Origin: a virus
Taxonomy: Duplodnaviria; Heunggongvirae; Uroviricota; Caudoviricetes
Strand: one strand, 5' to 3'
Virus record (IMG/VR): IMGVR_UViG_2706794690_000014
Length of the DNA: 39,909 bases
Positions 8,079 through 39,909 of this stretch are shown here, piece by piece (the stretch's first letter is position 1; every line of letters starts with the position of its first letter). The notes under the pieces were generated by a model. It was not told the DNA's origin. It was given only the letters and a program-made list of their open reading frames with translations, and ran no database searches. The position numbers were made by a program, and so were the translations under genes.

Positions 8079-8081
8079 TGC

Positions 8082-8962: not shown

Positions 8963-9098
8963 GCAAATTGTTGAATGTCCCACCTGTGGAAATGAGGACC
9001 CGGAGTATCTGAAAGAGTGCCCACATTGTGGTGAGATAAAATGTAACCACTGCGATATGGGCGACGACACTGCATGTATAAATTGTGAGGATGAATAA
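8955..9098 (+). CDS. Small Cys-rich zinc-ribbon protein (47 aa)
   Basis: MDEQIVECPTCGNEDPEYLKECPHCGEIKCNHCDMGDDTACINCEDE: four Cys pairs. Below the ORF-track size cut-off; found by reading the gap. Confidence 0.4.
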   Translation: MDEQIVECPTCGNEDPEYLKECPHCGEIKCNHCDMGDDTACINCEDE

Positions 9099-9099
9099 T

Positions 9100-9607: not shown

Positions 9608-9635
9608 AGATTTTTCCTTTTATGTTAATTGACAT

Positions 9636-9664
9636 GGCGGTGCGGTAACACCGCCCATTTTTTA
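9636..9664 (+). terminator. Rho-independent terminator-like hairpin
   Basis: Stem ggcggtg/caccgcc with loop cggtaa, followed by a T6 run (9658-9663); lies just upstream of gemA. Confidence 0.5.
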
Positions 9665-9677
9665 TGGAGCCACGATA

Positions 9678-10190: not shown

Positions 10191-10194
10191 CCCC

Positions 10195-10225
10195 AAATCC
10201 CGCCACAGCGCGGGATTTTTATTTT
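10195..10225 (+). terminator. Rho-independent terminator
   Basis: 9-bp stem aaatcccgc/gcgggattt with a 6-nt loop, followed by ttattttt; directly after the gemA stop. Confidence 0.6.
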
Positions 10226-10260
10226 AAACTTGCCCTGTGTAATGATGACCGGAGGCGGGT

Positions 10261-10683
10261 ATGGCTGAAACACAGATGAGCATGTTTGGTGACAGCGAAC
10301 AGCTGCACGCGCTGATTGACCGTCTGGATGATATTCCTGATGATGAGCTGAAAAAGAACTGGCCCGGCACGCTGCGGGACCTGGTTGATGTGATCAGTGC
10401 TGAACTGCACCGTCAGGGGATTGAACCTGCTCAGGCGGGAATGCTTGCCCGTAAGGTTGCAGCCGCACAGGCCGGGTACATGGGCGGGCGTGGTTATTAT
10501 CTCCCGGTCGGTGAATCCCTTTTCACCGAACTGCGCAATAATGAAATTTTTTCCCGCTGGAGCCAGGGCGAAAAAATTGAAACCCTGCGCCGCCACTACC
10601 AGATGTCAGAGACGCAGATTTACTCCGTTATCCGCAACCAGCGTCGCCTGCATCAGGAACGCACGCAGCCACGGCTTTTCTGA
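10261..10683 (+). CDS. Mor/C-family late transcription activator
   Basis: 140 aa with a C-terminal HTH (MSETQIYSVIRNQRR); sits between gemA and the lysis genes as Mor/C do in Mu. Cannot tell Mor from C. Confidence 0.7.
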   Translation: MAETQMSMFGDSEQLHALIDRLDDIPDDELKKNWPGTLRDLVDVISAELHRQGIEPAQAGMLARKVAAAQAGYMGGRGYYLPVGESLFTELRNNEIFSRWSQGEKIETLRRHYQMSETQIYSVIRNQRRLHQERTQPRLF

Positions 10684-10754
10684 TATTCCGCAAATCCTGC
10701 CCCCTTTTCCTCACGGTTACGCTGACTCAGAGAACACCATGAGACAGCGTAACA

Positions 10755-11255
10755 ATGCCAAAACTCCCCGCACCCCTGCGTAAAAAGCTGATTGCCCTTG
10801 TTCTGGCCGGAGCCGGGACGTTCACCATTGCCACGCACTACACCGGCTACTGGGAAGGGAAAGAAAACACCACGTACATTGATCCCACCGGCACCCCCAC
10901 CATCTGTTACGGCCATACCGGCCCGGATGTGAAACCGGGGATGACAAAAACTGATGAAGAGTGTCTGGAGCTGCTGGAAAAGGACATGAAATGGGCCTTT
11001 GCGGCTATCGATCGTCATGTTCAGGTGCCGCTTACCCGTGGTCAGACGGTGGCGCTGGCCTCCTGGATTTTCTGGGCCGGTGAAACGAACTTTCGCAACT
11101 CCACGCTCCTGCGCCTTATCAATGCCGGGCAGATGCCCGCGTCCTGTAAGCAGTATATCCGCTGGATTTATTCAAAGGGGGTAAAACTCCCCGGTCTTGA
11201 GGCCCGCCGTTCGGCGGATGAATGGTTATGTCGTTACGATTTGCCGAAAGTCTGA
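10755..11255 (+). CDS. lys: Endolysin (phage lysozyme) with N-terminal SAR-type signal anchor
   Basis: Catalytic E-x8-D-x5-T pattern (WEGKENTTYIDPTGTPTICYGHT); weakly hydrophobic Gly/Ala-rich N-terminus (LIALVLAGAGTFTIATHY). Confidence 0.8.
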   Translation: MPKLPAPLRKKLIALVLAGAGTFTIATHYTGYWEGKENTTYIDPTGTPTICYGHTGPDVKPGMTKTDEECLELLEKDMKWAFAAIDRHVQVPLTRGQTVALASWIFWAGETNFRNSTLLRLINAGQMPASCKQYIRWIYSKGVKLPGLEARRSADEWLCRYDLPKV

Positions 11256-18739: not shown

Positions 18740-18916
18740 TGGTTTAAGGTATGCAAACGTATTACCTTACCCCCTTCAGGCGCGTGTCGTGATTTTCTAA
18801 CCTGTATTTAACGGGCTTTAAAATCTGCGTGAAGCGCCTTTCTCATTCCCCCCCTGTCAGCACTTTCTGAAGTCCCGCAAAACCAGCCCCAAAAATACCC
18901 GGCTTATGCTGCCGGT

Positions 18917-20050
18917 ATGAAGACAGAAAATCACCCAAAAGACGCAAATCGCCCCTCCGGTTTAGCCGTGCTTTCAGCTTCGCTGACTGCATCCGGCGAC
19001 GGATGGTGTCAGTTACTGCCAGCCGGTCGGGTAAAGGCCCGTGACGGTCGCCCGGAAAAACCGACTGAAGGCTGGCTGATTAACGAATCCGCCTGTAACC
19101 GGATGAAAGCCGGGCTTTCCGCCCTGCATCAGCCGTTACTGATTGATTATGACCATCACTCCGTGAATGCGCAGAAAAACGGATTCAAGGCTATTGCTGC
19201 AGGATGGGTTAAGCCGGAAAACATCGAATGGCGTGAGGGTCAGGGGATTTTCATTAAACCTGAATGGACACCACAGGCACAAAAACATATTGATGACCGT
19301 GAATATGCCTATCTGTCTGCATATATGCATTATTTCGCTGACACCGGGGAACCCTACCTGTTGCGCATGGCTTCCCTGACGAATGATCCGGGTATTACGG
19401 GTATGAACCCTGTCGCGGCACTCAGTGCTGATGATCTCTATGTCGTTTCCCCTTCTCAGGAGCAATCCCCCATGAATGAGCAATTACGCCAGTTGCTGAC
19501 GGCGCTCGGTCTGACCGTGGCTGACGGTGACGAATTTACACCGGAACTGGGCACGGCGGCGCTGTCTGCCCTTACCGGGATCAAAACCCGTGCGGATGCG
19601 CACGACACCCTGAAAACGCAGGTTGCCAGCCTGTCGGCAGAACTGGAAACCGCAAAAGGCACACCAACTGGCGGCACTATTGATCTGACGAAATATGTGC
19701 CCGTTGAGACGTATAACGCCCTGCGTACCGAATATGCCGCGCTGTCGGCACAACACGGCAGCACCACGCTGGAGCAGTTGCTGGATAAGGCCGAGTCCGA
19801 AGGACGCATTTTCAAAAGCGAACGCGGATACATGGAAGGACTCGGACAACAGATTGGCGTCGCGGCACTTTCTGCACAGCTTGACGCCCGCCAGCCGGTT
19901 GCGGCTCTGACCACTCTTCAGACCGACACCGTAACCGTGCCGGATAAAAAGACCGCCACCGCTGTGCTGTCGGCTGAAGATATCGCCGCCGCACGTCTGT
20001 TGGGTAAAACCGAAGCCGAGTTCCTGAAAATGAAAGAGGAAATGCAATAA
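18917..20050 (+). CDS. Head maturation protease / scaffold (Mu I-like)
   Basis: 377-aa ORF immediately upstream of the major head gene; Ala-rich helical C-terminal half consistent with a scaffold domain. Confidence 0.75.
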   Translation: MKTENHPKDANRPSGLAVLSASLTASGDGWCQLLPAGRVKARDGRPEKPTEGWLINESACNRMKAGLSALHQPLLIDYDHHSVNAQKNGFKAIAAGWVKPENIEWREGQGIFIKPEWTPQAQKHIDDREYAYLSAYMHYFADTGEPYLLRMASLTNDPGITGMNPVAALSADDLYVVSPSQEQSPMNEQLRQLLTALGLTVADGDEFTPELGTAALSALTGIKTRADAHDTLKTQVASLSAELETAKGTPTGGTIDLTKYVPVETYNALRTEYAALSAQHGSTTLEQLLDKAESEGRIFKSERGYMEGLGQQIGVAALSAQLDARQPVAALTTLQTDTVTVPDKKTATAVLSAEDIAAARLLGKTEAEFLKMKEEMQ

Positions 20051-20997
20051 TGCCTACCCCGATTACACCGGCGATGATCACCGCCCTGATGACGGGCTAC
20101 CGTTCTGATTTTCAGGCCGGGATGTCCATGGCTCCGTCGCAGTACCAGAAAATTGCGATGACCGTGCCGTCCACCTCGAAATCCAACACCTACGGCTGGC
20201 TGGGGCAGTTCCCGCAGTTCCGTGAGTGGATCGGCTCCCGCGTCATCGAGAAGATGAAAGCCTATGGCTACGCCATCGTGAACAAAACCTTTGAAGGCAC
20301 CGTTGCCATTAGCCGCGATGACTTTGAAGACGACAATCTCGGCATCTACTCCCCGTTATTCCAGGAAATGGGTCGTGCCGCTGCGGCACAACCGGATGAA
20401 CTGGTCTTTGCTGCACTGCGTGATGGTCTGAATGCGGCCTGCTATGACGGCCAGAACTTCTTTGATACCGAACACCCTGTTTACCCCAAAGTGGATGGCT
20501 CCGGTGATGCACAGATGGTCAGCAATATGTTTGTGGCAAAAACCGGCTCTGTCGGTGCACAGGCGGATTACAGCGGCCCGGCCTGGTATCTGCTTGACTG
20601 CTCCCGCGCGGTAAAACCGCTGATTTATCAGGATCGCCGCAAAGCCGAACTGGTTGCCCAGACAAAAGTCGATGAAGGCCGTGCGTTTACTGATAACGAG
20701 TTTGTGTTCGGTGCTTCCGCCCGTCGCAATGTGGGCTACGGCTTCTGGCAGATGGCCTACATGATGCAGTCACCGCTGACGCTGGATGCGCTGTGGCACG
20801 GCTGGTCAGCCATGCGTGACTTTAAGGCTGACGGTGGCCGCAAACTCGGCATCAAACCCACCCATATTGTTGTCCCCACCTCGCTGGAAAAACAGGCGGT
20901 GCAGCTGCTGGAGCGCGAGCTGTTCGCAGACGGTAACGCCACAGTCTCTAACGAGATGAAGGGCAAGCTGGAGCTGGTTGTCGCGGATTATCTGTAA
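20050..20997 (+). CDS. Major head subunit (Mu T-like)
   Basis: 315-aa ORF coupled to the I-like gene by ATAATG overlap. Confidence 0.8.
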   Translation: MPTPITPAMITALMTGYRSDFQAGMSMAPSQYQKIAMTVPSTSKSNTYGWLGQFPQFREWIGSRVIEKMKAYGYAIVNKTFEGTVAISRDDFEDDNLGIYSPLFQEMGRAAAAQPDELVFAALRDGLNAACYDGQNFFDTEHPVYPKVDGSGDAQMVSNMFVAKTGSVGAQADYSGPAWYLLDCSRAVKPLIYQDRRKAELVAQTKVDEGRAFTDNEFVFGASARRNVGYGFWQMAYMMQSPLTLDALWHGWSAMRDFKADGGRKLGIKPTHIVVPTSLEKQAVQLLERELFADGNATVSNEMKGKLELVVADYL

Positions 20998-24548: not shown

Positions 24549-25025
24549 ATGAGCACACGTAAGAAAAAAACGGCGGTTTCTGACGAGGCCGTGATGGAGG
24601 CTATCCGGGATGCACTTGAAGACGGCGATCCCCGCACCGCCGGGCTGGCTGAACAACTGGCGAACGGCTATGTGGATCTGCTCGACGGTCTGCCGTTCGG
24701 GGAATCCCGTGAATACCGCGTCACCTTCCGCGAACTGACGGCAAAAGACAGCATTGATGCGGAGAGCGAGGCCGAGCGTCTTATGGAAACCCGAAACGGT
24801 CCGGTTCTTGTGGCCTCACCGGCACTGCGCGGCATTGCGCTGCTGCGCCGTCAGATTGCCGCTGTCGGCCAGATTGAGGGGCCATTGTCTCCGCGTCAGA
24901 TAGGACAGCTCAGCGAGCGCGATCTCTCCCGACTGATGGCGGCAGTAAGCCTGCTTGATTCCGCGATGGCCGGAAAGCTGGTCGCTGAACGGGGGCGACC
25001 AGATGCAGTGCCGGGATCAGATTGA
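24549..25025 (+). CDS. Tail assembly chaperone
   Basis: 158-aa acidic ORF between tail tube and tape measure, the conserved chaperone position. Confidence 0.65.
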   Translation: MSTRKKKTAVSDEAVMEAIRDALEDGDPRTAGLAEQLANGYVDLLDGLPFGESREYRVTFRELTAKDSIDAESEAERLMETRNGPVLVASPALRGIALLRRQIAAVGQIEGPLSPRQIGQLSERDLSRLMAAVSLLDSAMAGKLVAERGRPDAVPGSD

Positions 25026-25149
25026 AGAAGCCGCAATTGTGCTGGGGATGGTGACAAAAAGCGGCCCGGAGTGGGCGCTTAACCTCCCCTTATCGCAGCT
25101 TTACCGGCACTGCCGACAGACCGAAAAAATTCTCAGAACGAAGCAGTAA
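24955..25149 (+). CDS. Candidate frameshift extension of the tail chaperone (or small overlapping gene)
   Basis: An ORF in the +1 coordinate frame overlaps the chaperone's last ~70 nt and fills the gap up to the tape-measure start (25153). An in-frame ATG at 25003 could alternatively start a 48-aa protein. Confidence 0.35.
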   Translation: MIPRWPESWSLNGGDQMQCRDQIEEAAIVLGMVTKSGPEWALNLPLSQLYRHCRQTEKILRTKQ

Positions 25150-25152
25150 CCC

Positions 25153-27249
25153 ATGGCAAAAAACCTGAAAGCCTCCCTGATTGTCGATTTACTCGGCAAT
25201 ATTTCTGCCAAATCCCGCCAGTGGTCACAGGAGCTGGGGGCATTCTCCCGTTCCGGCAGGACGGGGCTGGGTGGTCTTGGAAATGCAGCACGTCGTGCCG
25301 GTCAGGAGACAGAACTTGTCGGCTCCCGTATGCAGCGAACGCTTGCCGGTGTTCGTGGCAGTATCCGCACGGTGACGTCAGATTTTGACCGCCTTCAGGG
25401 CAGCATTNNNNNNNNNNNNNNNNNNNNNNNNNNNNNNNNNNNNNNNNNNNNNNNNNNNNNNNNNNNNNNNNNNNNNNNNNNNNNNNNNNNNNNNNNNNNN
25501 NNNNNNNNNNNNNNNNNNNNNNNNNNNNNNNNNNNNNNNNNNNNNNNNNNNNNNNNNNNNNNNNNNNNNNNNNNNNNNNNNNNNNNNNNNNNNNNNNNNN
25601 NNNNNNNNNNNNNNNNNNNNNNNNNNNNNNNNNNNNNNNNNNNNNNNNNNNNNNNNNNNNNNNNNNNNNNNNNNNNNNNNNNNNNNNGCGGGTTCGGTAT
25701 GAGTGACAGGGAAGCCCGTCGCTTTATTACCATGCTTCAGGATCAGGGCGGCTATCACGGCTGGTCACTGTCAGATGCACAGGGTGCGTCCCTGCAACTC
25801 AAACAGATGTTTGCCCGCCAGAGTATCCAGGCAGCGGACGCCAATATTCTGACCGGATACGGGATTAACGTTTACCAGTTGCTGGCCGATAAGCTGGGTG
25901 TAAACCAGAAGATCATCCGTGAGAAAGGCGAGAAAGGAAAACTGGGACCGGACAGCATTCGCCTGTTATTTCAGGTGATGGCCGAACAGGCAAAAGGTGC
26001 CCAGAAAAACGCCATGAATTCCTGGACGGGAATGACGTCCATGATGGGCGATGTCTGGGACGGATTTGCCCGCGAGGTGATGGCAAAGGGACCGTTTGAC
26101 AGCCTGAAAAAGAGCCTGAAAGGCTTTCTGGATTATGCTGATGCGGCACAGAAAAGCGGCTTACAGGATAAGCTGGCCACACAGACGGCCTCAGCCCTGA
26201 ATCAGGGATTTGAGTATGCCAGAGACGCTGCGACCGGCTTTTACCGGGTCATTCAGAAAGTCAGGGAAACGCTTCAGGCACTGCGCGACGCCGGTTATGG
26301 CGATGCGCTGGATCGCATTGGTCAGGGTGCGCAGACCGCCGCAAAGTACCTGATGTATATGTATCTCGCCTCCCGTGCGCTGAAGGTGCTCAGGTTTGCG
26401 GGGACGGGGGCATTACGTCTCGGCGCAACCCCCTTACGCTATGGCATGGCGATGACCTCCGTGCTGACGTCGCCCTTCCGCAAACCGCAGACCACTGTAC
26501 CGGGAACGCAGCCCGGACGCGCTGGCCGGTTCCTGAATTTCCTTACCGGGGTAAATCCGGCTGCCGTTCAGCCCGTGCTGGTCACCAATTGGCCTGCGGG
26601 TGGCCTGGCCTCAGGTGGCGGGGATGTGGTGGTCAGCGGTGACGGCAAAACCGTGCGCGGCCGTAAAAAACGCGGCCCCGGACGTGGACGGGGTGTCACG
26701 ACCGTCGTGACTGCCGGTGAGCAACTGGCGGAGAGTGCCGGTAAACAGGGCTTCTTCGGTCGTATGATGAGCCGTGCCGGTGGTCTGCTAACGGCGGCCG
26801 GAAACCGCATGGGGCTGGGGCGTTTTGCCGGGCTGTTCCGTGGTGCCGGTCGGCTGGGTGGTGGTGCCCTGTGGGCCGGTGCCATGGCGGCTCCTGTACT
26901 GCTGGACAGCAGCGCCAGTGCAGCCGATAAAGCCGGTGCCGTGGGTTCCCTTGCCGGAAGTATCGCCGGTGGCGCGCTGGGGGCGGCTGCCGGTCCGGTC
27001 GGGGTTGCCATTGGTTCCACGGTGGGCAGCTATCTCGGTGATTATCTGGGGGGCTGGCTGACGCAGGCCTGGCAGAAACTGCGTGGCGGCAGTGACGAAA
27101 ACGGCGGACAGGCCACCGCGAAAACCGCCGCACGGGTGGAGCTTGTTGCCCCTGAAGGCTGGCGGGCGCGCAGTATTGATGTGGATGATACCGCACAGCA
27201 TGGCCTGGATGTGAACGTCTGGAACGGAGGGAACTATGGCCTCTACTGA
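25153..27249 (+). CDS. Tail tape measure protein (interrupted by an assembly gap)
   Basis: 698-codon ORF after the chaperone; Gly/Ala-rich C-terminal region. Contains 280 N at 25408-25687. Confidence 0.75.
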   Translation: MAKNLKASLIVDLLGNISAKSRQWSQELGAFSRSGRTGLGGLGNAARRAGQETELVGSRMQRTLAGVRGSIRTVTSDFDRLQGSIXXXXXXXXXXXXXXXXXXXXXXXXXXXXXXXXXXXXXXXXXXXXXXXXXXXXXXXXXXXXXXXXXXXXXXXXXXXXXXXXXXXXXXXXXXXXXXGFGMSDREARRFITMLQDQGGYHGWSLSDAQGASLQLKQMFARQSIQAADANILTGYGINVYQLLADKLGVNQKIIREKGEKGKLGPDSIRLLFQVMAEQAKGAQKNAMNSWTGMTSMMGDVWDGFAREVMAKGPFDSLKKSLKGFLDYADAAQKSGLQDKLATQTASALNQGFEYARDAATGFYRVIQKVRETLQALRDAGYGDALDRIGQGAQTAAKYLMYMYLASRALKVLRFAGTGALRLGATPLRYGMAMTSVLTSPFRKPQTTVPGTQPGRAGRFLNFLTGVNPAAVQPVLVTNWPAGGLASGGGDVVVSGDGKTVRGRKKRGPGRGRGVTTVVTAGEQLAESAGKQGFFGRMMSRAGGLLTAAGNRMGLGRFAGLFRGAGRLGGGALWAGAMAAPVLLDSSASAADKAGAVGSLAGSIAGGALGAAAGPVGVAIGSTVGSYLGDYLGGWLTQAWQKLRGGSDENGGQATAKTAARVELVAPEGWRARSIDVDDTAQHGLDVNVWNGGNYGLY
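25408..25687. other. Assembly gap (280 N)
   Basis: Uninterrupted run of n characters. Confidence 0.99.
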
Positions 27250-28594
27250 CACGCCGGGGCGTGGCTCCTTTCGTGGCGTACCGTTCCTGGTTTATCAGGA
27301 GCAGCGGGAACGGGGCGGACGTAACATTGTGCGCCGTGAATACCCACTGCGTGAAAGCGGCGGTGCGGATGATCTGGGGCCAAAACTCCCGGAGTTCACA
27401 TTCACGGTTCTGGTGACCGGAGACGATCTTCAGACACAGCGAAGCCGCCTGCGTGATGCGCTGCGTGCACCCGGTGCCGGTGAACTGATGCACCCGGATT
27501 ACGGCACGTTAAACGTGCTGATAAACAGCTTTGAAAGCCGTTATAACGCCAGCGAGCAGGGAACGGTTGAGTTCACGATCAACGTGATCCCCGCCAGTGA
27601 CGATACCGCCCCTGCGGTGGCAGAAGATACGGCAGCTGCGCTGGAGCAGAAAAGCGGCTCAGCAATGAATCAGCTGTTTAACACGCTTTCAGACGGCTGG
27701 ACGGTGATTTCAGACGGTCTGCATGATGTACAGGCCATGACCGACACCATCAGCGATAAGATTGATGCACTGGAGAATGCCGTTTCGGGGATGGGGATTG
27801 TGCAGGATATCAGTGCCTTTACGGCCAGTTTTACTGCCCTGAAAGGCAATGCCGCCGCCCTGATTAATGCGCCCCGTCGCATGGCTGAATCGCTGGCCGG
27901 AATGTTTGCCGTGCTGACCGGGCTGCCCGGCGATCCTTCCCTGTCTCTGACCGGAAAAGCCGGAACGCCGTCCGGCAGCCTGACCACAAACCGTGACAGC
28001 ATGGCAGAGCAGGCCATGCCGCAGCTGTACCGCACACTTTCCTCCCTGCGTTACACCCTCAGCGAACAGGATGATCCACAGCGCCTGATTGGCCTGACGC
28101 CTGCGGCACAGAAAAATATCCGTCTGCTGCGGAGCGTGATGCAGAGTGCAACCCTGGTGTCGCAGGCACAGACGCTCGGAAAACTGCTGGATCAGGTCAT
28201 CCGGCAGAATACGACGCACGTTCAGGATACTGACCGTTCGGGCGGACTGGCCTGGCTGGAAAGTTCTGCTGATGTGCAGCGTATCAACCGGGATTTGAGC
28301 GATGCCATGGAACAACAGGTGCTGGATCTGTCCGCACAGGGCTATACCGGGACTGCCCTTGCATTACGTGATGCAGGGCTTGCGCTGACAGAAGATTTAA
28401 CCACACGGAGCGTGCATCTTCCCGGTGCTTTTCAGGTCATGGTTCGCACCACCGAACCGGCACTGGTCACGCTGTACCGTGCCACCGGCAACAGCAGTCG
28501 CTGGCAGTATTTTGTCCGCAGAAACAATATCCCCGATCCGGTTTTTGTTCCGGGTGGCCGCAGCGTGGAGGTGATCAGTGAGCAGCAGGATTGA
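27236..28594 (+). CDS. DNA circularization protein (Mu N-like)
   Basis: 452-aa ORF downstream of the tape measure; position as Mu gene N. Confidence 0.7.
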   Translation: MASTDTPGRGSFRGVPFLVYQEQRERGGRNIVRREYPLRESGGADDLGPKLPEFTFTVLVTGDDLQTQRSRLRDALRAPGAGELMHPDYGTLNVLINSFESRYNASEQGTVEFTINVIPASDDTAPAVAEDTAAALEQKSGSAMNQLFNTLSDGWTVISDGLHDVQAMTDTISDKIDALENAVSGMGIVQDISAFTASFTALKGNAAALINAPRRMAESLAGMFAVLTGLPGDPSLSLTGKAGTPSGSLTTNRDSMAEQAMPQLYRTLSSLRYTLSEQDDPQRLIGLTPAAQKNIRLLRSVMQSATLVSQAQTLGKLLDQVIRQNTTHVQDTDRSGGLAWLESSADVQRINRDLSDAMEQQVLDLSAQGYTGTALALRDAGLALTEDLTTRSVHLPGAFQVMVRTTEPALVTLYRATGNSSRWQYFVRRNNIPDPVFVPGGRSVEVISEQQD

Positions 28595-31818: not shown

Positions 31819-32369
31819 CCCTGACCCCGCATCAGCGCGCCCTGTTGCAGTTACTGCCTGACGGGCTGGCATGGGACAAGCGTCCGTCATCCGTACTGGC
31901 ATCATTATGTCTGGGCCTCAGTCATTCGACAGCGCGTGTATCCTGGACGGGTAAACAGCTGCTTGCCGAGCGTTTCCCTGACACGTCGCGCCTGCTGCTG
32001 GAAGACTGGGAGCGTTATCTCGGGCTTCCCGAGTGTGATATGGCCGGAGCCACCCTCACGGAGCGACAGCGTTATGCCGGAAATAAATACCGGATGAAGC
32101 CCTCGCTGAACCGTGAATTTTATATCCGGTTTGCGGCGGAGTTTGGTTATCAGATTGACATTCAGCCCTCACCGGATTCGCAGTGGGTCAGTATTGTCAC
32201 GATTAACAGTGAAACCGGCTACCGGAATATGAATGTGCTGGATGATATTCTCACGCCGCTGCGTATTTATGAAGGCGGTGCGCTGGAATGTATTCTGAAC
32301 CGTTATAAGCCTGCATGGCAGACGTTTATTTACGTTTATGCAAACAGCCATGAAGAGGAGACTATTTAA
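31809..32369 (+). CDS. Tail protein (Mu gp48-like)
   Basis: 186-aa ORF immediately before the tail fiber gene. Confidence 0.65.
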
Positions 32370-33250
32370 TGTTTCATGTTGATAATAATTCCGGCGTGGC
32401 GAATATGCCTGCGCTGGCACCGGCGCAGAGTAATACCACCACCTGGTTTACCGAAGGTGACGGACAAAAAGGTATCAGCTGGATTGGTCAGGACTGGCTG
32501 AATATTCTCCAGGCCGAACTGCTGAATATTCTGGCTGAAGCCAGTATTCAGCCGGATAAGGCGCAGTTAAACCAGCTTACGCTGTCCATTAAAGCCATTA
32601 TCGCTGCGAATGCCTTTTCCCGGAAAAATAACCTGAAAGAAATTGCTGATGCCGGTGCGGAGGCCCAGCGTCTGGCCCGTGGTTATCTTGGTCTGGGGAC
32701 GCTTGCCACAAAAAACAGTCTTGGTCCCGCTGACGTTAATGCCCTGGCGAAGGATCAGAATCTCGCCGACCTGGAGAATAAGGGAACCGCCCGTAATAAT
32801 CTGGATGTTTACAGCAAAAGCGAAGGTGATAACCGTTACCTGCGCAGGGAGCAGAACGGCGCAGACATTCCGGATAAAGGGGCTTTTATCGATAACGTCG
32901 GTTTACGGGAAACGGTAAACAGGGCGGCGAATGCCCTGCCATCGGACGGCACCGCCGTTGCCGCGAACAGGCTGGCAAATGCCCACACAATTAATGGTGT
33001 TCCCTTTGACGGGACGCAGGATATCACTATCTCATCAGGAACAGTAACCGCCATAAGACTGGGGTCGGTGACCGCACATATGCCCGGAACATGGGAAAGC
33101 TGGGATCTGAATCTGGGGGGCGGCAATGTTCTTACCGGAATTAAAGTACAGGATGTCGGTAAGAATACGGCAGATAACGTCGGCGGCGTGTATTACCGGC
33201 CGTTGCAGTATCTGTTAAATGGAGCATGGGTGACGGCTGCAAGTATATAA
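32369..33250 (+). CDS. Tail fiber protein (constant N-terminal part plus invertible variable C-terminal part)
   Basis: 293-aa ORF; a gix-like site lies in-frame at codons FIDNVGLRE (32886-32911), so everything 3' of 32899 is inside the invertible segment. Confidence 0.8.
32886..32911. repeat. gix-like recombination site, left
   Basis: ttatcgataacg-tc-ggtttacgggaa: two 12-bp half-sites around a 2-bp core; the right half is the exact reverse complement of the left half of the right site. Confidence 0.7.
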
Positions 33251-33281: not shown

Positions 33282-33803
33282 TTACTGTGGCTGCTCAGGC
33301 CATTTAATGGCGTTAAATTCAGCTTCTGTTTTAATGGCGGGTAGTTCCATTTTCTTCACCTGACTGATGTATGCCATCCATTGGGTAAGTGCTGCTCTGT
33401 CTTCATCGCTGATGGTGCCCAGTTGTAGCTCCGTTCTCCAGTCATTAATTTTTTCATATGCCTGATTAAGATATGACTGGCGCATTGCTTCCAGTTTTCT
33501 TGCGTAGTTAACCGGAATACGGGAGATTATGCCATTATCAAACTTCCAGTTTCCTGAAATATCCGTGCCTTCAGGGAGTTCATCGACCTCAACCACAGAA
33601 AACCCCGCAGGATACAGCGCCGAGGCGTCCTGTGATATTGAGCAGATAACGCCGCTGTCAGGTGTTATGCAAAGTTTATATTTTTTGGTGAATAATGGCA
33701 GGGATTCGTAGAAATCCTTACCATCTTCACTCTGGAAATACTGAACATTATTACCATATGGCATATTTTCAGGATAATAACGGGTTATATTTTTTAGTTC
33801 CAT
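33282..33803 (-). CDS. Tail fiber assembly protein (U'-like)
   Basis: 173-aa minus-strand ORF inside the invertible segment, directly downstream of the silent alternative fiber cassette. Confidence 0.7.
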   Translation of the reverse strand: MELKNITRYYPENMPYGNNVQYFQSEDGKDFYESLPLFTKKYKLCITPDSGVICSISQDASALYPAGFSVVEVDELPEGTDISGNWKFDNGIISRIPVNYARKLEAMRQSYLNQAYEKINDWRTELQLGTISDEDRAALTQWMAYISQVKKMELPAIKTEAEFNAIKWPEQPQ

Positions 33804-33854: not shown

Positions 33855-34215
33855 TTATAACTGAGATACCGTAATCCATGTACCTCCGACTAATTTTTGC
33901 AGGGGTCTGAATGCTATAAAATCGTTTGAAGCATCAACTTTACTGTCAATCTGCAGGCCTGCCATAACATTACCGTACGCAGAGTAATATGCCCCACCGT
34001 ACATTACCTGCCTGTTCTCTGCTCCCAGCCTGATATCCTGGATATATCGGGAATCCGCATCCTGCTGTGTTATACCAGAAGTGATGTTTATGTCCTGCGT
34101 CCCGTCAAAGGGAACCCCATTAATATTTCTTGGGGTGGCGAGTCTATTCGCGGCAACGGCGGTGCCGTCCGATGGCAGAGCATTCGCCGCCCTGTTTACC
34201 GTTTCCCGTAAACCG
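33855..34215 (-). CDS. Silent alternative tail-fiber C-terminal cassette (S'v-like, no start codon)
   Basis: Minus-strand frame open from the right gix site to a TAA at 33855-33857 (~119 codons). Its first ~40 codons mirror the tail fiber ([23 protein letters not shown]...GVPFDGTQD), then diverge. Confidence 0.55.
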
Positions 34216-34228
34216 AGGTTTTCAGGAA
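34203..34228. repeat. gix-like recombination site, right
   Basis: ttcccgtaaacc-ga-ggttttcaggaa, closely matching the recalled Gin/Hin-family crossover consensus; 66 bp upstream of gin. Confidence 0.7.
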
Positions 34229-34293: not shown

Positions 34294-34866
34294 ATGCTGA
34301 TTGGGTATATCAGGGTGTCAACAAATGACCAGAATACGGCGCTACAAAGAAATGCGCTGGAATGTGCAGGATGTGAGCTGTTTTTCGAAGACAGAATAAG
34401 CGGTAAGACAAGGGAGCGTCCCGGACTTAAACGCGCATTAAAGCGACTCCGGCCAGGGGATACCCTGCTGGTCTGGAAACTGGATCGCCTTGGACGCAGT
34501 ATGCAGCACCTTGTCCTTTTAACAGAAGAACTCCGGCAACGCGGCGTTAACTTCCGCAGCATTACGGACAATATTGATACATCCACTCCCATGGGACGTT
34601 TCTTTTTCCATATAATGGGCGCGCTGGCGGAAATGGAGCGGGAACTCATTATTGAACGTACACGCGCGGGTCTTGCTGCTGCCCGTGCTCAGGGGCGTCA
34701 TGGCGGCAGACCTCAGAAACTGACAGAGAAAGAGCGGGAGCAAATCGCCCGTTTGCTGGCTAATGGCGAGTCCCGTAAACAAATCGCACTGATATTTGAT
34801 ATTGGCCTTTCCACCCTTTATCGTTATTTTCCTGCCTCACCAGCTCCGTCACCAAAAGTACCGTGA
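34294..34866 (+). CDS. gin: Serine DNA invertase (Gin/Hin/Pin family)
   Basis: N-terminal catalytic region MLIGYIRVSTNDQ and C-terminal HTH (GESRKQIALIFDIGLSTLYRYF), both typical of serine invertases. Confidence 0.9.
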   Translation: MLIGYIRVSTNDQNTALQRNALECAGCELFFEDRISGKTRERPGLKRALKRLRPGDTLLVWKLDRLGRSMQHLVLLTEELRQRGVNFRSITDNIDTSTPMGRFFFHIMGALAEMERELIIERTRAGLAAARAQGRHGGRPQKLTEKEREQIARLLANGESRKQIALIFDIGLSTLYRYFPASPAPSPKVP

Positions 34867-34951
34867 CGCTTTTTTGAATTTCCGCAAAACACATATTTTT
34901 CAGCGGTCGCTATTCTGACTCTGTTTAATTCAGAAACAGGCAGAAAAGACG

Positions 34952-37006
34952 ATGTCAGACTCCAAGTGGAAAATGCTCTCCGCCATGCCCGGAGAGTTTT
35001 CAGTCAAGGTTGCCGGTGGCACGGTGGCATTTATTGAAAGCCCTTTCCGCCCTTCGGGTAATAAAGGGGGGATCACCTTCGCAGACTGCGTGATCCGCTT
35101 CAGCACGAAAGAGCCATTATGGGTAATGCCGGTATCCGGTAATCCCAGTGCAGAAATCACCAGTTCAGGCGTGACTGGCATCATTCCAATCACATCTGAC
35201 GTGGCCGGAACGCTCACGCCCTCCGACTGGAATGCACCGGATAACGCCGGGCCTTCCGGTAGCACGAATGGCAGCAGTTCAGAGCCGGAATATTACTTTG
35301 TTGTCATTCTCGCGGGTCAGTCAAATGGCATGGCCTACGGCGAGGGGCTGCCGTTACCGGATTCGTTTGACCGCCCGGACCCACGCATTAAGCAACTGGC
35401 ACGCCGCAGTACGGTAACGCCCAACGGTACGTCGTGTACATACAACGACATCATTCCGGCAGACCACTGCCTGCATGATGTTCAGGATATGAGCGGGATA
35501 AACCACCCGAAAGCTGATCTGGCAAAAGGCCAGTACGGGACTGTCGGTCAGGGGTTGCATATTGCCAAAAAACTGCTTCCCTATATCCCACAGAATGCCG
35601 GGATACTTCTGGTGCCCTGTTGTCGTGGCGGGTCAGCATTCACCACTGGAGCCGACGGCTCATTCAGTGAGGCCAGCGGTGCTTCCGCTGATTCTTCACG
35701 CTGGGGGGCCGGTAAACCTCTGTATCAGGACCTGGTAAGCCGCACCAAAGTCGCGCTGGCGAAAAACCCGAAAAACAAACTTCTGGCTGTGGTCTGGATG
35801 CAGGGAGAGGCAGACCTTGCCTCAGGAAGCCAGCAGCATAATAGTTTATTCACGGCCATGGTTCAGCAGTTCAGAACTGACCTGGCTCCGCTTGCTGCGC
35901 AGTGCGTGAGTGGAAATGCCACCACGGTGCCGTGGATTTGCGGTGATACCACGTATTACTGGAAAAACGCTGGCACCGATAAATATGAGGCAGTATACGG
36001 TGGCTACAAAGGCAAGGAAGCACAGAAAATTTTCTTTGTACCGTTCCTGACGGATGAGAATGGACAGAGCACGCCAACGAATGCTCCGGCGGAAGACCCG
36101 GATATTGTGGCTGTCGGGTATTACGGTGCAGCATCCCGAACCCAGGGCAGTTTTGTTTCGACACAGCGTGACAGCCATTTCAGCTCATGGGCACGCAGGG
36201 GCGTCATTTCAGACCGTCTGGCCTCAGCTATTATGCTCCATGCAGGGCGCACGGCTGAACTGATGCGTGGGCAGACCGTGACACCACCGGATGAGAAGCC
36301 GTCACCTGATACACCATCAAAACCGTCCACGCCACCCGCAGACACCACGACGATGAGTACGCTATTTGCTTACCGGGCATCTGAGTCTGAAGGACGGTTG
36401 ACACCACAGGGTTGGGCTGCCGGAGGTGGCAAGGCTCAAATCGTGGATGATGCCGGAGCCAGCGGGGGTAAGGCAATGAAACTGACCAAGGAAACAGGAA
36501 GAGCCCCCTGGTACCTTGAGCATGATGCTGGTAATGGTGCGGACCTGCTGGGTAAAGGTGGTCTTGTCAGTTGTCGTTTTAAACTCGATGGCGCGCTTAC
36601 GGCTAATCAGTACGCACTGGCGCTGTACTGGCCGGTTTCTGCCCTGCCGCAAGGGGTTACTCTGGAAGGAAATGCCGGTCATAACCTGCTGGCATCGTTC
36701 TACGTACAGAGCGATGCCACAGACCTTAACGTGATGTATCACAAAGGAAACACGGCGCAGAACACGAAGCTGGGGTCATTCGGCGCATTTAATAACGAAT
36801 GGCATACGCTGGGCTTCCGTTTTGCCGGTAACAACAGTATTGAGGTGACGCCGGTCATTGATGGTAAGGACGGGACACCATTCATGCTGTCGCAGTCTCC
36901 GGTCGGCACGTTTACGGCAGACAAGTTGCGCGTGACCGATATCACTAAAAATGCGACTTACCCGGTACTGATTGACAGTATCGTGGTGGAAGTGAATAAC
37001 GCGTAA
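34952..37006 (+). CDS. nanS-p: SGNH/SASA-type esterase, prophage NanS-p-like (putative sialate O-acetylesterase)
   Basis: 684-aa ORF with the catalytic-serine motif ILAGQSNGMAYGEG; large C-terminal region typical of prophage esterases. Not a Mu core gene. Confidence 0.6.
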   Translation: MSDSKWKMLSAMPGEFSVKVAGGTVAFIESPFRPSGNKGGITFADCVIRFSTKEPLWVMPVSGNPSAEITSSGVTGIIPITSDVAGTLTPSDWNAPDNAGPSGSTNGSSSEPEYYFVVILAGQSNGMAYGEGLPLPDSFDRPDPRIKQLARRSTVTPNGTSCTYNDIIPADHCLHDVQDMSGINHPKADLAKGQYGTVGQGLHIAKKLLPYIPQNAGILLVPCCRGGSAFTTGADGSFSEASGASADSSRWGAGKPLYQDLVSRTKVALAKNPKNKLLAVVWMQGEADLASGSQQHNSLFTAMVQQFRTDLAPLAAQCVSGNATTVPWICGDTTYYWKNAGTDKYEAVYGGYKGKEAQKIFFVPFLTDENGQSTPTNAPAEDPDIVAVGYYGAASRTQGSFVSTQRDSHFSSWARRGVISDRLASAIMLHAGRTAELMRGQTVTPPDEKPSPDTPSKPSTPPADTTTMSTLFAYRASESEGRLTPQGWAAGGGKAQIVDDAGASGGKAMKLTKETGRAPWYLEHDAGNGADLLGKGGLVSCRFKLDGALTANQYALALYWPVSALPQGVTLEGNAGHNLLASFYVQSDATDLNVMYHKGNTAQNTKLGSFGAFNNEWHTLGFRFAGNNSIEVTPVIDGKDGTPFMLSQSPVGTFTADKLRVTDITKNATYPVLIDSIVVEVNNA

Positions 37007-37021
37007 GCAGGATAAAAAAAT

Positions 37022-37055
37022 GCCGCCGGTAAGGGAAAACAAGAAACCGGCGGCA
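37022..37055 (-). terminator. Terminator-like hairpin, U-tract on the minus-strand side
   Basis: 10-bp stem tgccgccggt/accggcggca with a 15-nt loop; A7 upstream and A5 downstream on the plus strand, so the T-run follows the stem only when read on the minus strand. Confidence 0.4.
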
Positions 37056-37150
37056 AAAAGATCGTTATATCCAAAGCAAAAAATGCAGTGCACCTTTTTA
37101 CCTAACAGATATTACCGGTGTCAACACCATGTCAATAATTGGGAGGGATA

Positions 37151-37333
37151 ATGACATTTTTACAGCTTATTTTATTGTATTTCTGCACGGCAGTATGTGC
37201 GTTATATCTGGTGAGTGGTGGTTATAAGGCCATCAGAAATTATGTTCGCCGCAAAATTGAGGACGCAGCAGCTGAAAAACTCAGTAAAACAGCGCAGGTA
37301 ACTCCGCTCCCAAAAGACCCGACCCAGCCCTGA
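37151..37333 (+). CDS. Small membrane protein (60 aa, single N-terminal TM)
   Basis: GGGAGGG RBS then ATG at 37151; hydrophobic N-terminus (FLQLILLYFCTAVCALYLV) and basic cytoplasmic tail. Confidence 0.45.
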   Translation: MTFLQLILLYFCTAVCALYLVSGGYKAIRNYVRRKIEDAAAEKLSKTAQVTPLPKDPTQP

Positions 37334-37348
37334 TTGCAGGGCTTTATT
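37326..37348 (+). terminator. Terminator-like hairpin
   Basis: agccctg-attg-cagggct followed by ttatt; overlaps the stop of the small membrane protein gene. Confidence 0.4.
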
Positions 37349-37368
37349 CCCGCATAAGGAGGATATAC

Positions 37369-37623
37369 ATGCCAGAAATTAAAGGCACCGTCACTGAAGA
37401 CCTGGTAAAACAGGCACTGTATTCCGGTGAAGTAAATAAGTTGCTGAAAGCGCAGGTCCGCAAGGATTTTGAGGCACAAATCGACACTTACGTTGATGAA
37501 GTGCTGGCAAAACTTATTGGGCCAGCAGTTGCGGCCAGTGATGCTGATAATGAGCCGAAAACCGACGCGCAGCCAGAGCAACCAGACCCGGCTCAGCCCG
37601 GAACTGACAGTACCATGATGTAA
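37369..37623 (+). CDS. Small acidic hypothetical protein (84 aa)
   Basis: Strong RBS TAAGGAGG 7 nt upstream of the ATG; helical N-terminal half, acidic Pro-rich C-terminus. Confidence 0.5.
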   Translation: MPEIKGTVTEDLVKQALYSGEVNKLLKAQVRKDFEAQIDTYVDEVLAKLIGPAVAASDADNEPKTDAQPEQPDPAQPGTDSTMM

Positions 37624-37790
37624 CAATACAAACCGGTGGTGTCCTCTGCCGGTTTGACACTAATGAAAACATCTTTGCCGCTATCCAGCCATATGTAATC
37701 GCTGGATAGTATTTCGTATTCAGAAATATAGCTGCTTATGGAGCAGTCAATCCTGCTTCCCCATCCGGGCAGGCAAATGAACCGGTATCA

Positions 37791-38084
37791 TTAGTCCGAT
37801 TCACGCTTTTGTAGAATCGTTCCCAGAATGCTATACAGCTCATTAGCCTGTTGCTCCATCATTGAGACGGAGGCTATACGGTGCAAAGTGATTTCAGGAG
37901 GTGGCACACCTCCATCTTCTTGCTGTGGAGGAAAAACATAAGATTTAATAAAAAAGTTGAAGCATATGAACTCTCCCGCACTCGAACTGTATTTGCAGGC
38001 ATCTGAATAATCGGAAAAATAATCATTATAGATTTCCGCATTTTCAATCATTTTTCGATTTCTCGTCGTTACATGATTGTCCAT
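37791..38084 (-). CDS. Hypothetical protein, minus strand, in AT-rich cargo DNA
   Basis: 97-aa ORF divergent from com/mom, with a ~210-bp AT-rich upstream region. Confidence 0.4.
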   Translation of the reverse strand: MDNHVTTRNRKMIENAEIYNDYFSDYSDACKYSSSAGEFICFNFFIKSYVFPPQQEDGGVPPPEITLHRIASVSMMEQQANELYSILGTILQKRESD

Positions 38085-38204
38085 AGCAGCCTCTTACGCT
38101 GGCAATTAACCAATTGACTTCTATAAATTAGTTGATTTGTTTGCTTTGCGGTATTCAAATGTACAATCATTCAGCACTTATGCGTTACAGCACCGTTTAA
38201 AATT

Positions 38205-38297
38205 AGTGATCAAACTCATAAATTTTCGCTAATGACATTTCGTGTTATTTGTTGTATCAATTAAATAAATCAAATCGATCGTTTTTGTCGATCGATT
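38205..38297. promoter_or_regulatory. GATC-cluster regulatory region upstream of com/mom
   Basis: Three GATC sites (38208-38211, 38277-38280, 38290-38293); the last two lie in a 9-bp inverted repeat aatcgatcg/cgatcgatt. Mu mom is known to be regulated through three Dam sites. Confidence 0.5.
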
Positions 38298-38340: not shown

Positions 38341-38541
38341 ATGTATCGAAACATACGGTGCCGACATTGTAACAAGCTACTGGCACGAGCCAGCTTCAGT
38401 TATCTGGAAGTTAAATGTCCGCGCTGTAAAACCCTCAATCAAATCACATCTCAGAGCGCCACAGAGCACCCCACATACACAAGGAAATCCTGTCGTGGGG
38501 AACAGAAAGCAAGTTACATCCCGTATCATCAGCACGCCTGA
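38341..38541 (+). CDS. com: Com-like zinc-finger translational activator
   Basis: [10 protein letters not shown]...VKCPRCK matches the Com zinc-finger pattern; AGGAGG RBS 10 nt upstream; overlaps the mom frame. Confidence 0.7.
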
Positions 38542-39232
38542 ACTTATTCACTATAACGACAATATCGTCGGTTATGGCTCCCGTGAGTTACGGGTTGAGA
38601 CAATAAGTTGCTGGCTGGCCCGGCTGGTCGTCGTCAATAAACATTACAGCCATCGTTTCGTAAATAATTCCTACCTTCATCTGGGCATATTTTCAGAACG
38701 GGAGCTGGTTGGCGTAATGCAATGGGGTTATGCCCTTAATCCAAACAATGGTGCACGCGTCGTAACTGGCACGCAGAACCGCGAATATATGGAGCTTAAC
38801 CGGTTATGGCTGCATGACTGTATGCCGAGAAACTCCGAATCAAGGGCAATCAGTTACGCGCTCAAACTAATCAGACAACTTTATCCGCAGGTGCAGTGGG
38901 TTCAGTCGTTTGCAGATGAGCGTTGTGGCTGTCTTGGTGTCGTGTACCAGGCAAGCAATTTTGATTATGTAGGCAGTCATGAAACAACATTCTATGAACT
39001 TGATGGCGAGTGGTATCACGAGATTTGCAAGAATGCAATCAAACGAGGAGGACAGCGAGGTGAACATCTGCGGGCTAATATCGACAGAGCCAGTGTTCAT
39101 AAATTCCGTCAGTTTCGTTACATCCGGTTTCTGGACAAGAGAGCCAGAAAACGCCTTAACACAAAGCTATTCAAAGTCCAGCCTTACCCAAAACCACAAA
39201 CAGTTAAAACTGGTTTGAAAGAGAGTGAATGA
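38495..39232 (+). CDS. mom: Mom-like DNA modification protein (start uncertain; frame is open from 38300)
   Basis: Last gene before the right end, overlapping com; C-terminal half has motifs ([33 protein letters not shown]) that fit my recollection of Mom. GTG 38495 chosen for a short overlap with com. Confidence 0.55.
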
Positions 39233-39390: not shown

Positions 39391-39909
39391 CCATGCTGTA
39401 AATCTCTTTATCCTGGTTGTCACAGAATAAGCCCGGTAAAATACGGGCTTATGAACGACATCTCTTCTGACGACATCTTCCTGCTGAAACAGCGCCTTGC
39501 CGAACGTCAGTTGAAAACGAAACCGCTGCTGAAATCCCTGGAAAGCTGGCTGCGTGAAAAGATGAAAACCCTGTCGCGACACTCAGAACTGGCGAAAGCG
39601 TTCGCATATGCCCTGAACCAGTGGCCGGCGCTGACGTACTATGCAGATGATGGCTGGGCTGAGGCGGACAATAACATCGCTGAAAATGCGTTGCGGATGG
39701 TCAGTCTGGGCCGCAAAAACTACCTGTTCTTCGGTTCGGATCATGGAGGAGAGCGGGGAGCGCTGCTGTACAGCCTGATCGGGACGTGCAAACTGAACGG
39801 AGTGGAGCCAGAAAGCTACCTCCGCTATGTCCTTGACGTCATAGCCGACTGGCCGATAAACCGGGTCGGCGAACTGCTCCCCTGGCGCGTAGCACTGCCG
39901 ACTGAATAA
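39391..39909 (+). pseudogene. tnpC: IS66-family transposase TnpC (orf3), 3' fragment only
   Basis: Frame opens just after the phage right end and encodes ~170 aa of transposase C-terminus; the N-terminal ~350 codons expected after tnpB are absent. Confidence 0.65.

Follow-up and report, generated by a model that had tools for sequence, protein, structure and literature searches.

A Mu-type variant of the NanS-p sialate O-acetylesterases with a different N-terminal domain in Mu-like prophages of Escherichia coli

NanS-p proteins are usually treated as cargo of Shiga toxin (Stx) phages and other lambdoid phages that helps enterohaemorrhagic Escherichia coli (EHEC) to grow on the O-acetylated sialic acids of mucin. 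The stretch of DNA analysed here, virus record IMGVR_UViG_2706794690_000014 at its full length of 39,909 nucleotides (the window), holds a gene of this family in another setting, between the DNA invertase gene gin and the com and mom genes of a Mu-type prophage. An initial annotation had read the gene as a NanS-p-like insertion that would not be expected in a Mu-type backbone. The kind of enzyme is known from prophages and does not constitute a new system; what is new is a Mu-type variant of it, in which the N-terminal domain has been swapped.

Results

The gin-com interval of a Mu-type prophage

The open reading frame (ORF) called in the initial annotation agrees exactly with the ORF listing, at 34952-37006 on the + strand with an ATG start and a product of 684 residues. 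The protein is identical to RefSeq WP_001284083.1, which bears the name 'DUF6645 domain-containing protein'. Pfam matches identify gin upstream of the esterase and Com and Mom downstream of it, the position originally proposed (Table 1). The accompanying statement that gin is followed directly by com and mom in Mu is also correct: in NC_000929 gin stops at 35673 and com starts at 35768, a gap of 94 bp, against ~3.47 kb in the window. The window gin product is 74% identical to Mu Gin and the window Mom 78% identical to Mu Mom. The description of the insertion as a single gene does not hold, since the interval contains a three-gene block, in the order esterase, DUF1378 and DUF826, followed by a variable spacer and then com.

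The rest of the window carries the expected markers of a Mu-type backbone. These include a repressor, MuA transposase (PHROG transposase, 1.5e-211), MuB (MuB_C), the late activator C (10261-10683; PHROG 532) and an endolysin (10755-11255), as well as genes for terminase, portal, head protease I (starting at 18917), major head protein (20050-20997), sheath, tape measure and the baseplate proteins gp47 and gp48. A tail fibre gene S with an invertible segment is also present, along with gin, com and mom. Repeats of the transposase-binding type, ATTTGATACCG, stand at both ends of the element, at ~700 and at 39364. The element is complete.

Table 1. Features of the right-hand region of the prophage, in window coordinates
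Feature	Coordinates	Strand	Basis
gin (DNA invertase), left neighbour outside the module	34294..34866	+	Pfam Resolvase 1.6e-51 and HTH_7; PHROG 125
Late-promoter-like element	34875..34916	+	Box TGAATTTCCGCAAAA at 34875-34889, 21-nt spacer, -10-like TATTCT at 34911-34916
Esterase ORF, 684 residues, NanS-p-family sialate O-acetylesterase, Mu-type	34952..37006	+	Pfam, PHROG and solved-structure matches
N-domain, residues 1-93, Mu-lineage-specific, predicted all-beta, in place of DUF1737	34952..35230	+	Profile searches; AlphaFold2 model
Linker 1, residues 94-111, Ser/Gly/Pro-rich, predicted disordered, ending SSSEP	35231..35284	+	Predicted local distance difference test (pLDDT) score <50 for residues 83-111
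DNA homology (88%) to lambdoid late region, L087 8231-10222	35284..37285	+	blastn
SASA/SGNH catalytic core, residues 112-437	35285..36262	+	3PT5 match, blocks I-IV
Linker 2, residues 438-468, Pro/Thr/Ser-rich	36263..36355	+	Hypervariable between lineages
C-terminal lectin-like jelly-roll domain (DUF6645), residues 469-684	36356..37003	+	Pfam; 6YP6
Stable GC-rich hairpin 3' of the esterase stop	37021..37055	+	RNA fold -21.7 kcal/mol, z=-4.65
DUF1378 small protein	37151..37333	+	Pfam PF07125 1.2e-31; PHROG 494
DUF826 small acidic protein	37369..37623	+	Pfam PF05696 6.4e-16; PHROG 311
Second hairpin, 3' of DUF826	37629..37656	+	-16.7 kcal/mol, z=-3.2; no U-tract
Variable spacer, low GC (~0.43), DUF826 to com	37652..38232		No homology to L002 there
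Orphan reverse ORF, 97 residues, within the spacer	37791..38084	-	ORF listing
com, right neighbour	38341..38541 (RefSeq start)	+	Pfam Zn_ribbon_Com (PF10122) 1.3e-12; coordinates from L001
mom, right neighbour	38495..39232	+	Pfam Mom (PF25680) 1.6e-77; RefSeq coordinates from L001

A NanS-p-type catalytic core and lectin-like domain

Profile searches bear out the reading of the ORF as a NanS-p-type esterase. Pfam gives SASA (PF03629) over residues 117-312 (E=1.5e-13, with a score over the gathering cut-off) and DUF6645 (PF20350) over residues 533-650 (E=7e-68), and PHROG 143 matches residues 71-684 (E=2e-296); PADLOC and NCBIfam gave no match. Residues 110-428 align to the solved E. coli NanS/YjhS structure (3PT5; E=2e-117, ~70% identity), with SGNH blocks I-IV present in their NanS-type variants: the predicted catalytic-serine motif GQSN at residues 122-125, CCRGGS at 223-228, WMQGE at 282-286 and RDSH at 406-409. 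Across an alignment of nine sequences, seven of them Mu-type and two lambdoid, Ser124, Gly226, Gln284, Glu286 and His409 do not vary. Residues 469-683 align to the solved C-terminal domain of a NanS-p protein (6YP6; E=7e-98, ~75% identity), and the proposed sugar-site aromatics are kept: Y554, Y559, Y584 and F654 align to Y510, Y515, Y540 and F611, the four residues defined in the phi24B protein (PMC10462455).

[quoted passage not shown] Given these ratios and the Pfam and PHROG matches, the ORF can be taken not to be a chance reading frame, and since the catalytic and sugar-site residues are intact and the domains are under purifying selection, the esterase is very probably active. Its chemistry is presumably that of NanS, the conversion of 5-N-acetyl-9-O-acetylneuraminic acid (Neu5,9Ac2) to Neu5Ac and acetate, because the core is ~70% identical and has the same block variants. 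For the NanS-p proteins of EDL933 and O104:H4, esterase activity on Neu5,9Ac2 and mucin is established (review PMC8065619), and, judging from characterized relatives of 62-93% identity, the substrates should be Neu5,9Ac2 and O-acetylated mucin sialoglycans.

Base composition was put forward in the initial annotation as a further check, and in this case is uninformative. The G+C content of the esterase gene is 0.54-0.56, that of the whole prophage 0.53 and that of lambdoid alleles 0.54-0.55, and a comparison of GC and third-position GC (GC3) gave no contrast between the gene and its backbone. The esterase belongs to a 90%-identity cluster of 599 member sequences, some records of which read 'sialate O-acetylesterase'. 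A single-sequence AlphaFold model of the full protein reached a pLDDT of 33 and was discarded.

Chromosomal NanS is a single-domain periplasmic protein of ~326 residues, with a signal peptide, and is encoded in the nanCMS operon. The window esterase differs from it in its prophage context, in its extra N- and C-terminal domains and in having no evident signal peptide: the N-terminus, MSDSKWKMLSAMPGEF, contains no hydrophobic signal sequence on inspection, no predictor having been run.

An N-terminal domain unrelated to DUF1737

The NanS-p assignment stands for the catalytic and C-terminal domains but not for the N-terminal DUF1737, one of the defining features of the family, which is replaced by another domain. 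DUF1737 (PF08410) matched neither the full protein nor residues 1-111 at E<=10, a search in which the N-terminus of the control protein from locus L173 scored 3e-17, and residues 1-111 had no Pfam match of any kind even at E<=10. The 11-15% identity of the window N-terminus to DUF1737 segments is noise. In BLASTP the lambdoid DUF1737-type protein P0033 (647 residues) is 91% identical to the window esterase over residues 109-684 and unalignable before that, and the Stx-phage NanS-p proteins align to it only from residue ~94-112 onward.

The domain is rare. An exhaustive HMMER search with residues 1-100 against 1.84 billion representative proteins gave four matches, of which P0002 and P0003 are fragments of the same protein and P0006 is a truncated esterase with a 30%-identical N-terminus; the match to P0007 is apparently spurious and was rejected. 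The statement of rarity rests on this search, as a word-indexed search with the N-terminal 110 residues gave only same-protein fragments. A scan of the GTDB species representatives with an alignment of the domain found no full-length copy, a result that depends on the pattern used and does not show absence outside E. coli and Shigella. A literature search found no paper describing the domain.

The AlphaFold2 model of the domain is all-beta, with six strands over residues 7-79 and a pLDDT of 73-86 for residues 10-75. DUF1737 consists of one helix and a three-stranded sheet (bioRxiv 10.64898/2026.04.10.717836), so that the predicted fold is a different one. The dN/dS of the domain is 0.035 against L027; against lineage B the proportion of non-synonymous differences (pN) is 0.23, with that of synonymous differences (pS) saturated at 0.78. 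By these measures it is a real, selected protein domain. Linker 1, which follows it, is hypervariable, with 0-22% identity between lineages. In the Mu-like clade, then, DUF1737 is replaced by an unrelated all-beta domain of ~93 residues and a disordered linker.

Distribution of the block

The clade was surveyed in IMG/VR contigs recognized by the N-domain, in viral loci fetched by their Mom protein and in 5,426 complete E. coli genomes. The full N-domain is present in 35 IMG/VR contigs and in Mu-like synteny only: as far as each contig extends, all 35 show the order gp47-gp48-S-U'-gin (or remnant)-esterase-DUF1378-DUF826-spacer-com-mom. The most distant contig, L042, has this synteny in part only, gin, DUF1378, DUF826 and Mom not being detected nearby. 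Its esterase (784 residues, 7986-10340) is 36% identical to that of the window in the N-domain, 69-70% in the core and 32% in a C-terminal region that is ~100 residues longer, and its gp47 is 78% identical.

Wherever Mom is 95% identical or more and the locus extends far enough upstream, the block is present, with a gin-com gap of 3.3-3.7 kb; among these loci L186 keeps only DUF1378 and DUF826, and L170 and L173 are rearranged copies. Loci of the Mu/D108/SfMu type (Mom 77-82%) are all without the esterase, and their gin-com gap is 127-134 nt where gin was detected adjacent. As first supposed, the esterase is out of the ordinary in a Mu-type phage: it is lacking in Mu, D108, SfMu and their relatives, which have a gap of 94-134 bp, and a literature search found no paper linking NanS-p to Mu-like phages. 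The insertion is not, though, a one-off, as within one clade of Mu-like prophages in E. coli the block has become fixed.

N-domain DNA was found in 32 of the 5,426 complete E. coli genomes, some with two or three copies, all of them annotated 'DUF6645 domain-containing protein'; 22 complete genomes carry the same protein at 99-100% DNA identity. One GenBank record marks an 'inserted Mu-like phage' with a 66%-identical copy that is left unannotated.

In several lineages (L012-L015, L017, L020, L026-L028) gin is reduced to a remnant of ~29 codons, and the esterase and its upstream box are fully kept. With only a remnant of gin, the tail-fibre segment of these lineages is presumably frozen.

Mosaicism with lambdoid nanS-p alleles

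The domains of the esterase differ in their relationships. The N-domain follows the phage: it is 97-99% identical within type A, to which the window belongs, 95-98% within type B, ~60% between A and B, and 36% in L042. The backbone proteins gp47 and Mom are 92-98% identical across lineages. The comparison of N-domain type with the major head protein covered a single lineage-B contig, in which that protein is 90% identical, against 99-100% for type-A carriers. The window catalytic core is 93% identical to that of lambdoid P0033 and 63-69% identical to those of other Mu-type esterases, and the lineage-B core is closest to 933W (80%). The window C-domain is 91% identical to that of P0033 and 32-72% identical to those of other Mu-type esterases, with L040, L041 and L042 at 32-45%. 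This per-domain mosaic indicates that Mu-type genes and lambdoid nanS-p alleles trade their enzyme and lectin cassettes by homologous recombination and that the N-domain stays with the Mu backbone.

The DNA homology to the lambdoid prophage L087 starts at the first codons of the catalytic domain (35284) and stops within the DUF1378 gene. L087 itself has the same trio, nanS-p-DUF1378-DUF826, between Q and the holin gene, and in L002 too the esterase gene has DUF1378 and DUF826 after it; in 933W only DUF1378 was detected 3' of the esterase (tblastn). ORFs of the same kind between nanS-p and S have been noted (PMC10462455).

Such an exchange is directly visible in two loci from IMG genome 2617270962. 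L173 (1-7738) has a lambdoid left side, RusA-Q-methylase-DUF1737, and is then 99-100% identical to the window through com and mom. L013 (1-11934) is the reciprocal product: its Mu part extends from gp47 to the N-domain and core of the esterase, and lambdoid holin and lysozyme genes follow. The crossover lies inside the esterase gene, near window position 36100. L173 had been a candidate counter-example, a DUF1737-type esterase beside Mu com and mom, and was rejected as a lambdoid x Mu recombinant with an in-gene crossover. As the reciprocal chimeras indicate, nanS-p paralogues serve as portable homology between Mu-like and lambdoid prophages that can drive chromosomal rearrangement.

A late-promoter-like element upstream of the esterase

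The 86-bp region upstream of the esterase contains, in lineages A and B, a conserved TGAATTnnCGCAAAA followed after ~21 nt by TATTCT or TATGAT. The element has no properly spaced -35 sequence, and in the gin-esterase interval there is neither a properly spaced sigma-70-type promoter nor a terminator. The sole match in the promoter scan, a weak sigma-70-like site at 34796-34824 in the 3' end of gin, is not conserved in gin-deleted lineages and was rejected. The box is kept upstream of the esterase in lineages B and C, and partly in L042, also where gin is deleted.

A search of the window for the box, allowing one mismatch, gave a single other site, at 18868-18882 on the + strand just 5' of head protease I; recurrence was seen in only 2.5% of shuffles. 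The arrangement is found a third time at 10681-10723, between the genes for the late activator C and the endolysin. The sites near 10681 and 18868 occupy the positions of Mu P_lys and P_I, and the box resembles TCCCGCACCT, which is common to these two Mu promoters. A 10-bp match between Mu P_lys and P_I is mentioned in PMC4461284. Late, C-dependent expression of the esterase is on this evidence probable.

The window contains a single exact copy of the C-box dyad of Mu (TTAT-N6-ATAA, as in Mu Pmom), between DUF1378 and DUF826 at 37344-37357. It was rejected as chance because it overlaps the DUF826 ribosome-binding site and 29% of shuffles also have a match. No such dyad was found ahead of the late operons of the window phage.

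Discussion

The window esterase is best classed with the NanS-p family, as a Mu-type variant. Like the lambdoid and Stx-phage NanS-p proteins (933W L0105/z1466; phi24B gp84, that is, vb_24B_21; 6YP6), it is prophage-borne and has the same SASA/SGNH core, DUF6645 and four aromatics, in a three-part architecture with two flexible Ser/Pro-rich linkers. The small DUF1378 and DUF826 genes, a frequent but not universal feature downstream of nanS-p, are also present, whereas DUF1737 and the lambdoid location between Q and S are absent. Identity over the full protein is 62-65% to 933W, and 91% to some lambdoid alleles over residues 109-684. At 684 residues the window protein exceeds the 636-657 residues reported for Stx-phage NanS-p and has a longer linker. 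The genetic context is that of a transposable Mu-type myovirus, between gin and com, and not the region between Q or stx and the holin gene S (L004, L087). Both genes would answer to the late regulatory system of their phage, the lambdoid one by Q antitermination and the window gene by a putative C-type activator promoter. In the latter respect the window phage resembles Mu, with which it shares the C activator and the P_lys and P_I positions of the late cascade. Its right end also has the flanking gene order of Mu, D108 and SfMu (S-U-U'-S'-gin-com-mom) and a similar GATC cluster ahead of com.

Taken together, these features are best explained by a late-expressed NanS-p-family esterase of a Mu-like clade, encoded in a three-gene block and fitted with an N-domain specific to the phage type, an explanation to which we assign a probability of about 0.7. 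The SGNH/SASA core would de-O-acetylate sialic acids, Neu5,9Ac2 among them, and the C-terminal lectin-like domain would bind carbohydrate. The gene would be transcribed late in lytic growth, from its own activator-type promoter under the control of Mu C. As expression is predicted to be late and no signal peptide is evident, the enzyme would be released from the cell at lysis.

Modular phage surface proteins such as the P22-type tailspikes combine a conserved virion-binding N-domain with exchangeable distal domains. The esterase invites comparison with these, its N-module being inherited with the phage type and its distal modules shuffled horizontally; unlike the P22-type adaptors, however, its N-domain has no sequence relation or confident fold relation to a known adaptor. 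Another analogy is phi24B gp84, whose DUF1737 binds the capsid hexon pores as a hexamer; cleavage at Ser-Ser-Pro-type linkers, reported to be autoproteolytic, later frees its enzyme (bioRxiv 10.64898/2026.04.10.717836). By analogy with gp84 the N-domain might be an adaptor that would attach the enzyme to the Mu-type virion, a tentative reading that fits its co-inheritance with the phage type, the purifying selection on it, the disordered SSSEP linker and the putative late promoter. Slightly more speculative is the generalization that the N-domain is an attachment module specific to the Mu particle and that NanS-p proteins are modular decorations of anchor, linker, enzyme and lectin, in which the anchor is swapped according to phage architecture. 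DUF1737 would then serve on lambdoid and P2-like heads and the beta-domain on Mu-like particles, with the enzyme and lectin cassettes circulating between them by recombination.

Several observations weigh against this explanation, some of them bearing on the anchor and some on the promoter. DUF1737-type esterases also occur in P2-like phages, and because one anchor domain can thus serve several head types, the need for a new anchor in a new phage type is weakened. The capsid of canonical Mu, a bare T=7 shell, carries no decoration protein (PMC11915804). Fold searches found no structural similarity of the N-domain to a known adaptor: with the N-domain model as query, Foldseek against PDB and BFVD gave nothing below E=0.0095, the best matches being cupin-like barrels and uncharacterized phage proteins of ~90 residues, weak and not diagnostic, and the model itself was built on a four-sequence alignment (pLDDT 67.5). 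The spacing between box and -10 is 21-23 nt, compared with 15 nt in Mu P_lys, and no matching box lies upstream of com or at the P_P position. The composite CCGCAAA-N20-24-TANNCT occurs three times in the window, all on the + strand (the other two CCGCAAA copies being at 10688 and 18875), against 0.09 expected and with none of 100 shuffles reaching three, a statistic that is partly circular because the pattern was written after the three sites had been seen. Independent support for the promoter comes from the first, unbiased box search, with its 2.5% of shuffles, and from the positions of the matches only.

The gene may alternatively be pure lysogenic-conversion cargo, a moron that lets the host use the 9-O-acetylated sialic acids of mucus, supplied by low-level expression in the lysogen or by release from a lysing subpopulation. 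The N-domain would have no virion role on this account and might serve in oligomerization, folding or solubility, or be left over from a fusion event. This corresponds to the established reading of NanS-p in EHEC, based on growth on Neu5,9Ac2 and de-O-acetylation of mucin (PMC8065619). Its location, at the far right of the prophage and in the company of other accessory genes (gin, com/mom and the orphan reverse ORF), is the usual place for a moron, and the fold searches give no pointer to a structural role for the N-domain. Read-through from gin, which is presumably expressed in lysogens, could provide expression, as no terminator precedes the esterase; however, lineages in which gin is deleted keep the esterase and the box, so such read-through is not required, and the upstream element matches late promoters and not a constitutive sigma-70 promoter. 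It is also hard to see, without a phage-specific partner, why the N-domain should be under strong purifying selection and track the backbone while the rest of the protein recombines. Cargo pure and simple is for these reasons rather unlikely, though feeding of the host is compatible with the favoured explanation, as sister lysogens can also profit from an enzyme that is made late or carried on the virion.

Less probable again is that the enzyme modifies receptors and so extends host range, acting on O-acetylated polysaccharides of the bacterial surface, such as O-antigens or the polysialic acid of K1-type capsules, to aid adsorption, with the N-domain attaching it to the tail or baseplate in the manner of a tailspike depolymerase. 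The possibility has been raised for NanS-p in a review (PMC8065619), and some proteins annotated as tail components do contain SASA domains (PHROG 25867 'tail protein', E=1e-6; a minor tail protein of an Arthrobacter phage). The position of the gene, directly after the tail-fibre genes S and U' and the host-range switch gin, would suit such a role, and it shares with those genes a high divergence between lineages (S 61-82%, U' 60-91% and esterase 60-70% identity, against 92-98% for gp47 and mom). However, the substrate of the characterized relatives is Neu5,9Ac2, free or bound to mucin, and a core that shares 93% identity with lambdoid alleles gives no sign of a new specificity. The phi24B homologue is on the capsid and not on the tail (bioRxiv 10.64898/2026.04.10.717836). 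The Mu baseplate and tail have been assigned to gp43-gp49 (PMC11915804), which is not decisive, as Mu is without the esterase.

That the gene is a decaying, non-functional remnant of recombination with lambdoid prophages is scarcely credible: it does recombine with lambdoid copies to make chimeric junctions, and some public copies are truncated or interrupted (e.g. L033, of 523 residues, L022 and L011), but the 684-residue frame is intact with all catalytic and sugar-binding residues conserved, dN/dS is low in every domain where it can be estimated, and the gene recurs nearly unchanged in the 22 complete genomes and in a large cluster.

The locus amounts to a natural domain-swap experiment, in which a core up to 93% identical to that of lambdoid enzymes is found in an unrelated transposable myovirus behind another N-domain. 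If the N-domain does anchor the enzyme to the Mu virion, display on the virion and not feeding of the host would be the selected function across unrelated phage types. The clade would then comprise the first Mu-type phages with a decorated, mucus-active virion, and the N-domain would be a new small adaptor usable for the display of cargo on Mu-type particles. Whatever its role, the gene is present in ~0.6% of complete E. coli genomes, where its name, 'DUF6645 domain-containing protein', is uninformative, and a tally of nanS-p alleles based on DUF1737 or on Stx-phage context will miss the Mu-type esterase.

Other features of the block and the prophage

Neither of the two small proteins encoded after the esterase has a credible match in PADLOC or NCBIfam; for DUF826 there is one very weak PADLOC match (PbeC, E=0.008), and for DUF1378 there are NCBIfam MnmH matches far below the cut-off. 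The N-terminal stretch of DUF1378 is hydrophobic and, judged by eye only, a possible membrane segment. The hairpin 3' of the esterase folds better than all 200 shuffles tested; it has no U-tract on the + strand and was not scored as a terminator. It is flanked by A-runs, so that viewed on the minus strand it would resemble an intrinsic terminator.

DUF826 and com are separated by a spacer that amounts to a variable moron slot. Its reverse ORF has no match in Pfam, PHROGs, PADLOC or NCBIfam, and only some lineages have it, others having lost or replaced it (e.g. L010, L011, L024 and L028 are without it). Beyond the spacer, ~50 nt 5' of com, a palindromic stretch at 38276-38295 contains two GATC sites that recall the Dam/OxyR control sites of Mu; the Mu C-box TTATGCCCCAATAA is absent from this GATC region. 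At some other right ends (L002, 7221-8472, from the Mu-like phage LC727881; L030; L036) com is 98% identical and there is no detectable Mom homologue. In L002 an ORF of 350 residues (7420-8472) overlaps com at the place expected for mom, and in right ends of this type a different com-controlled gene may have replaced mom.

Pieces of an IS66-family insertion sequence flank the prophage (window 1-701 and 39451-39909). The left piece comprises orfA and orfB and the right piece the C-terminal third of the transposase only. Because the two are not contiguous with one another, they suggest that the prophage did not simply insert but underwent a deletion or rearrangement associated with Mu; by eye, there is no clear 5-bp target duplication at the prophage ends.

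The gin-invertible segment is short, with 1,161 nt between 86-nt arms that are 93% complementary (32891-32976 and 34138-34223), compared with ~3 kb in Mu. It contains a single tail-fibre-assembly gene (33282-33803, - strand), and in the present orientation the S gene (293 residues, 32369-33250) has no chaperone gene downstream on the same strand. Within the tape measure ORF (25153-27249) the G+C content shifts sharply, from ~0.40 (25001-26000) to 0.63-0.65 (26001-27500), which suggests that this gene too is a mosaic.

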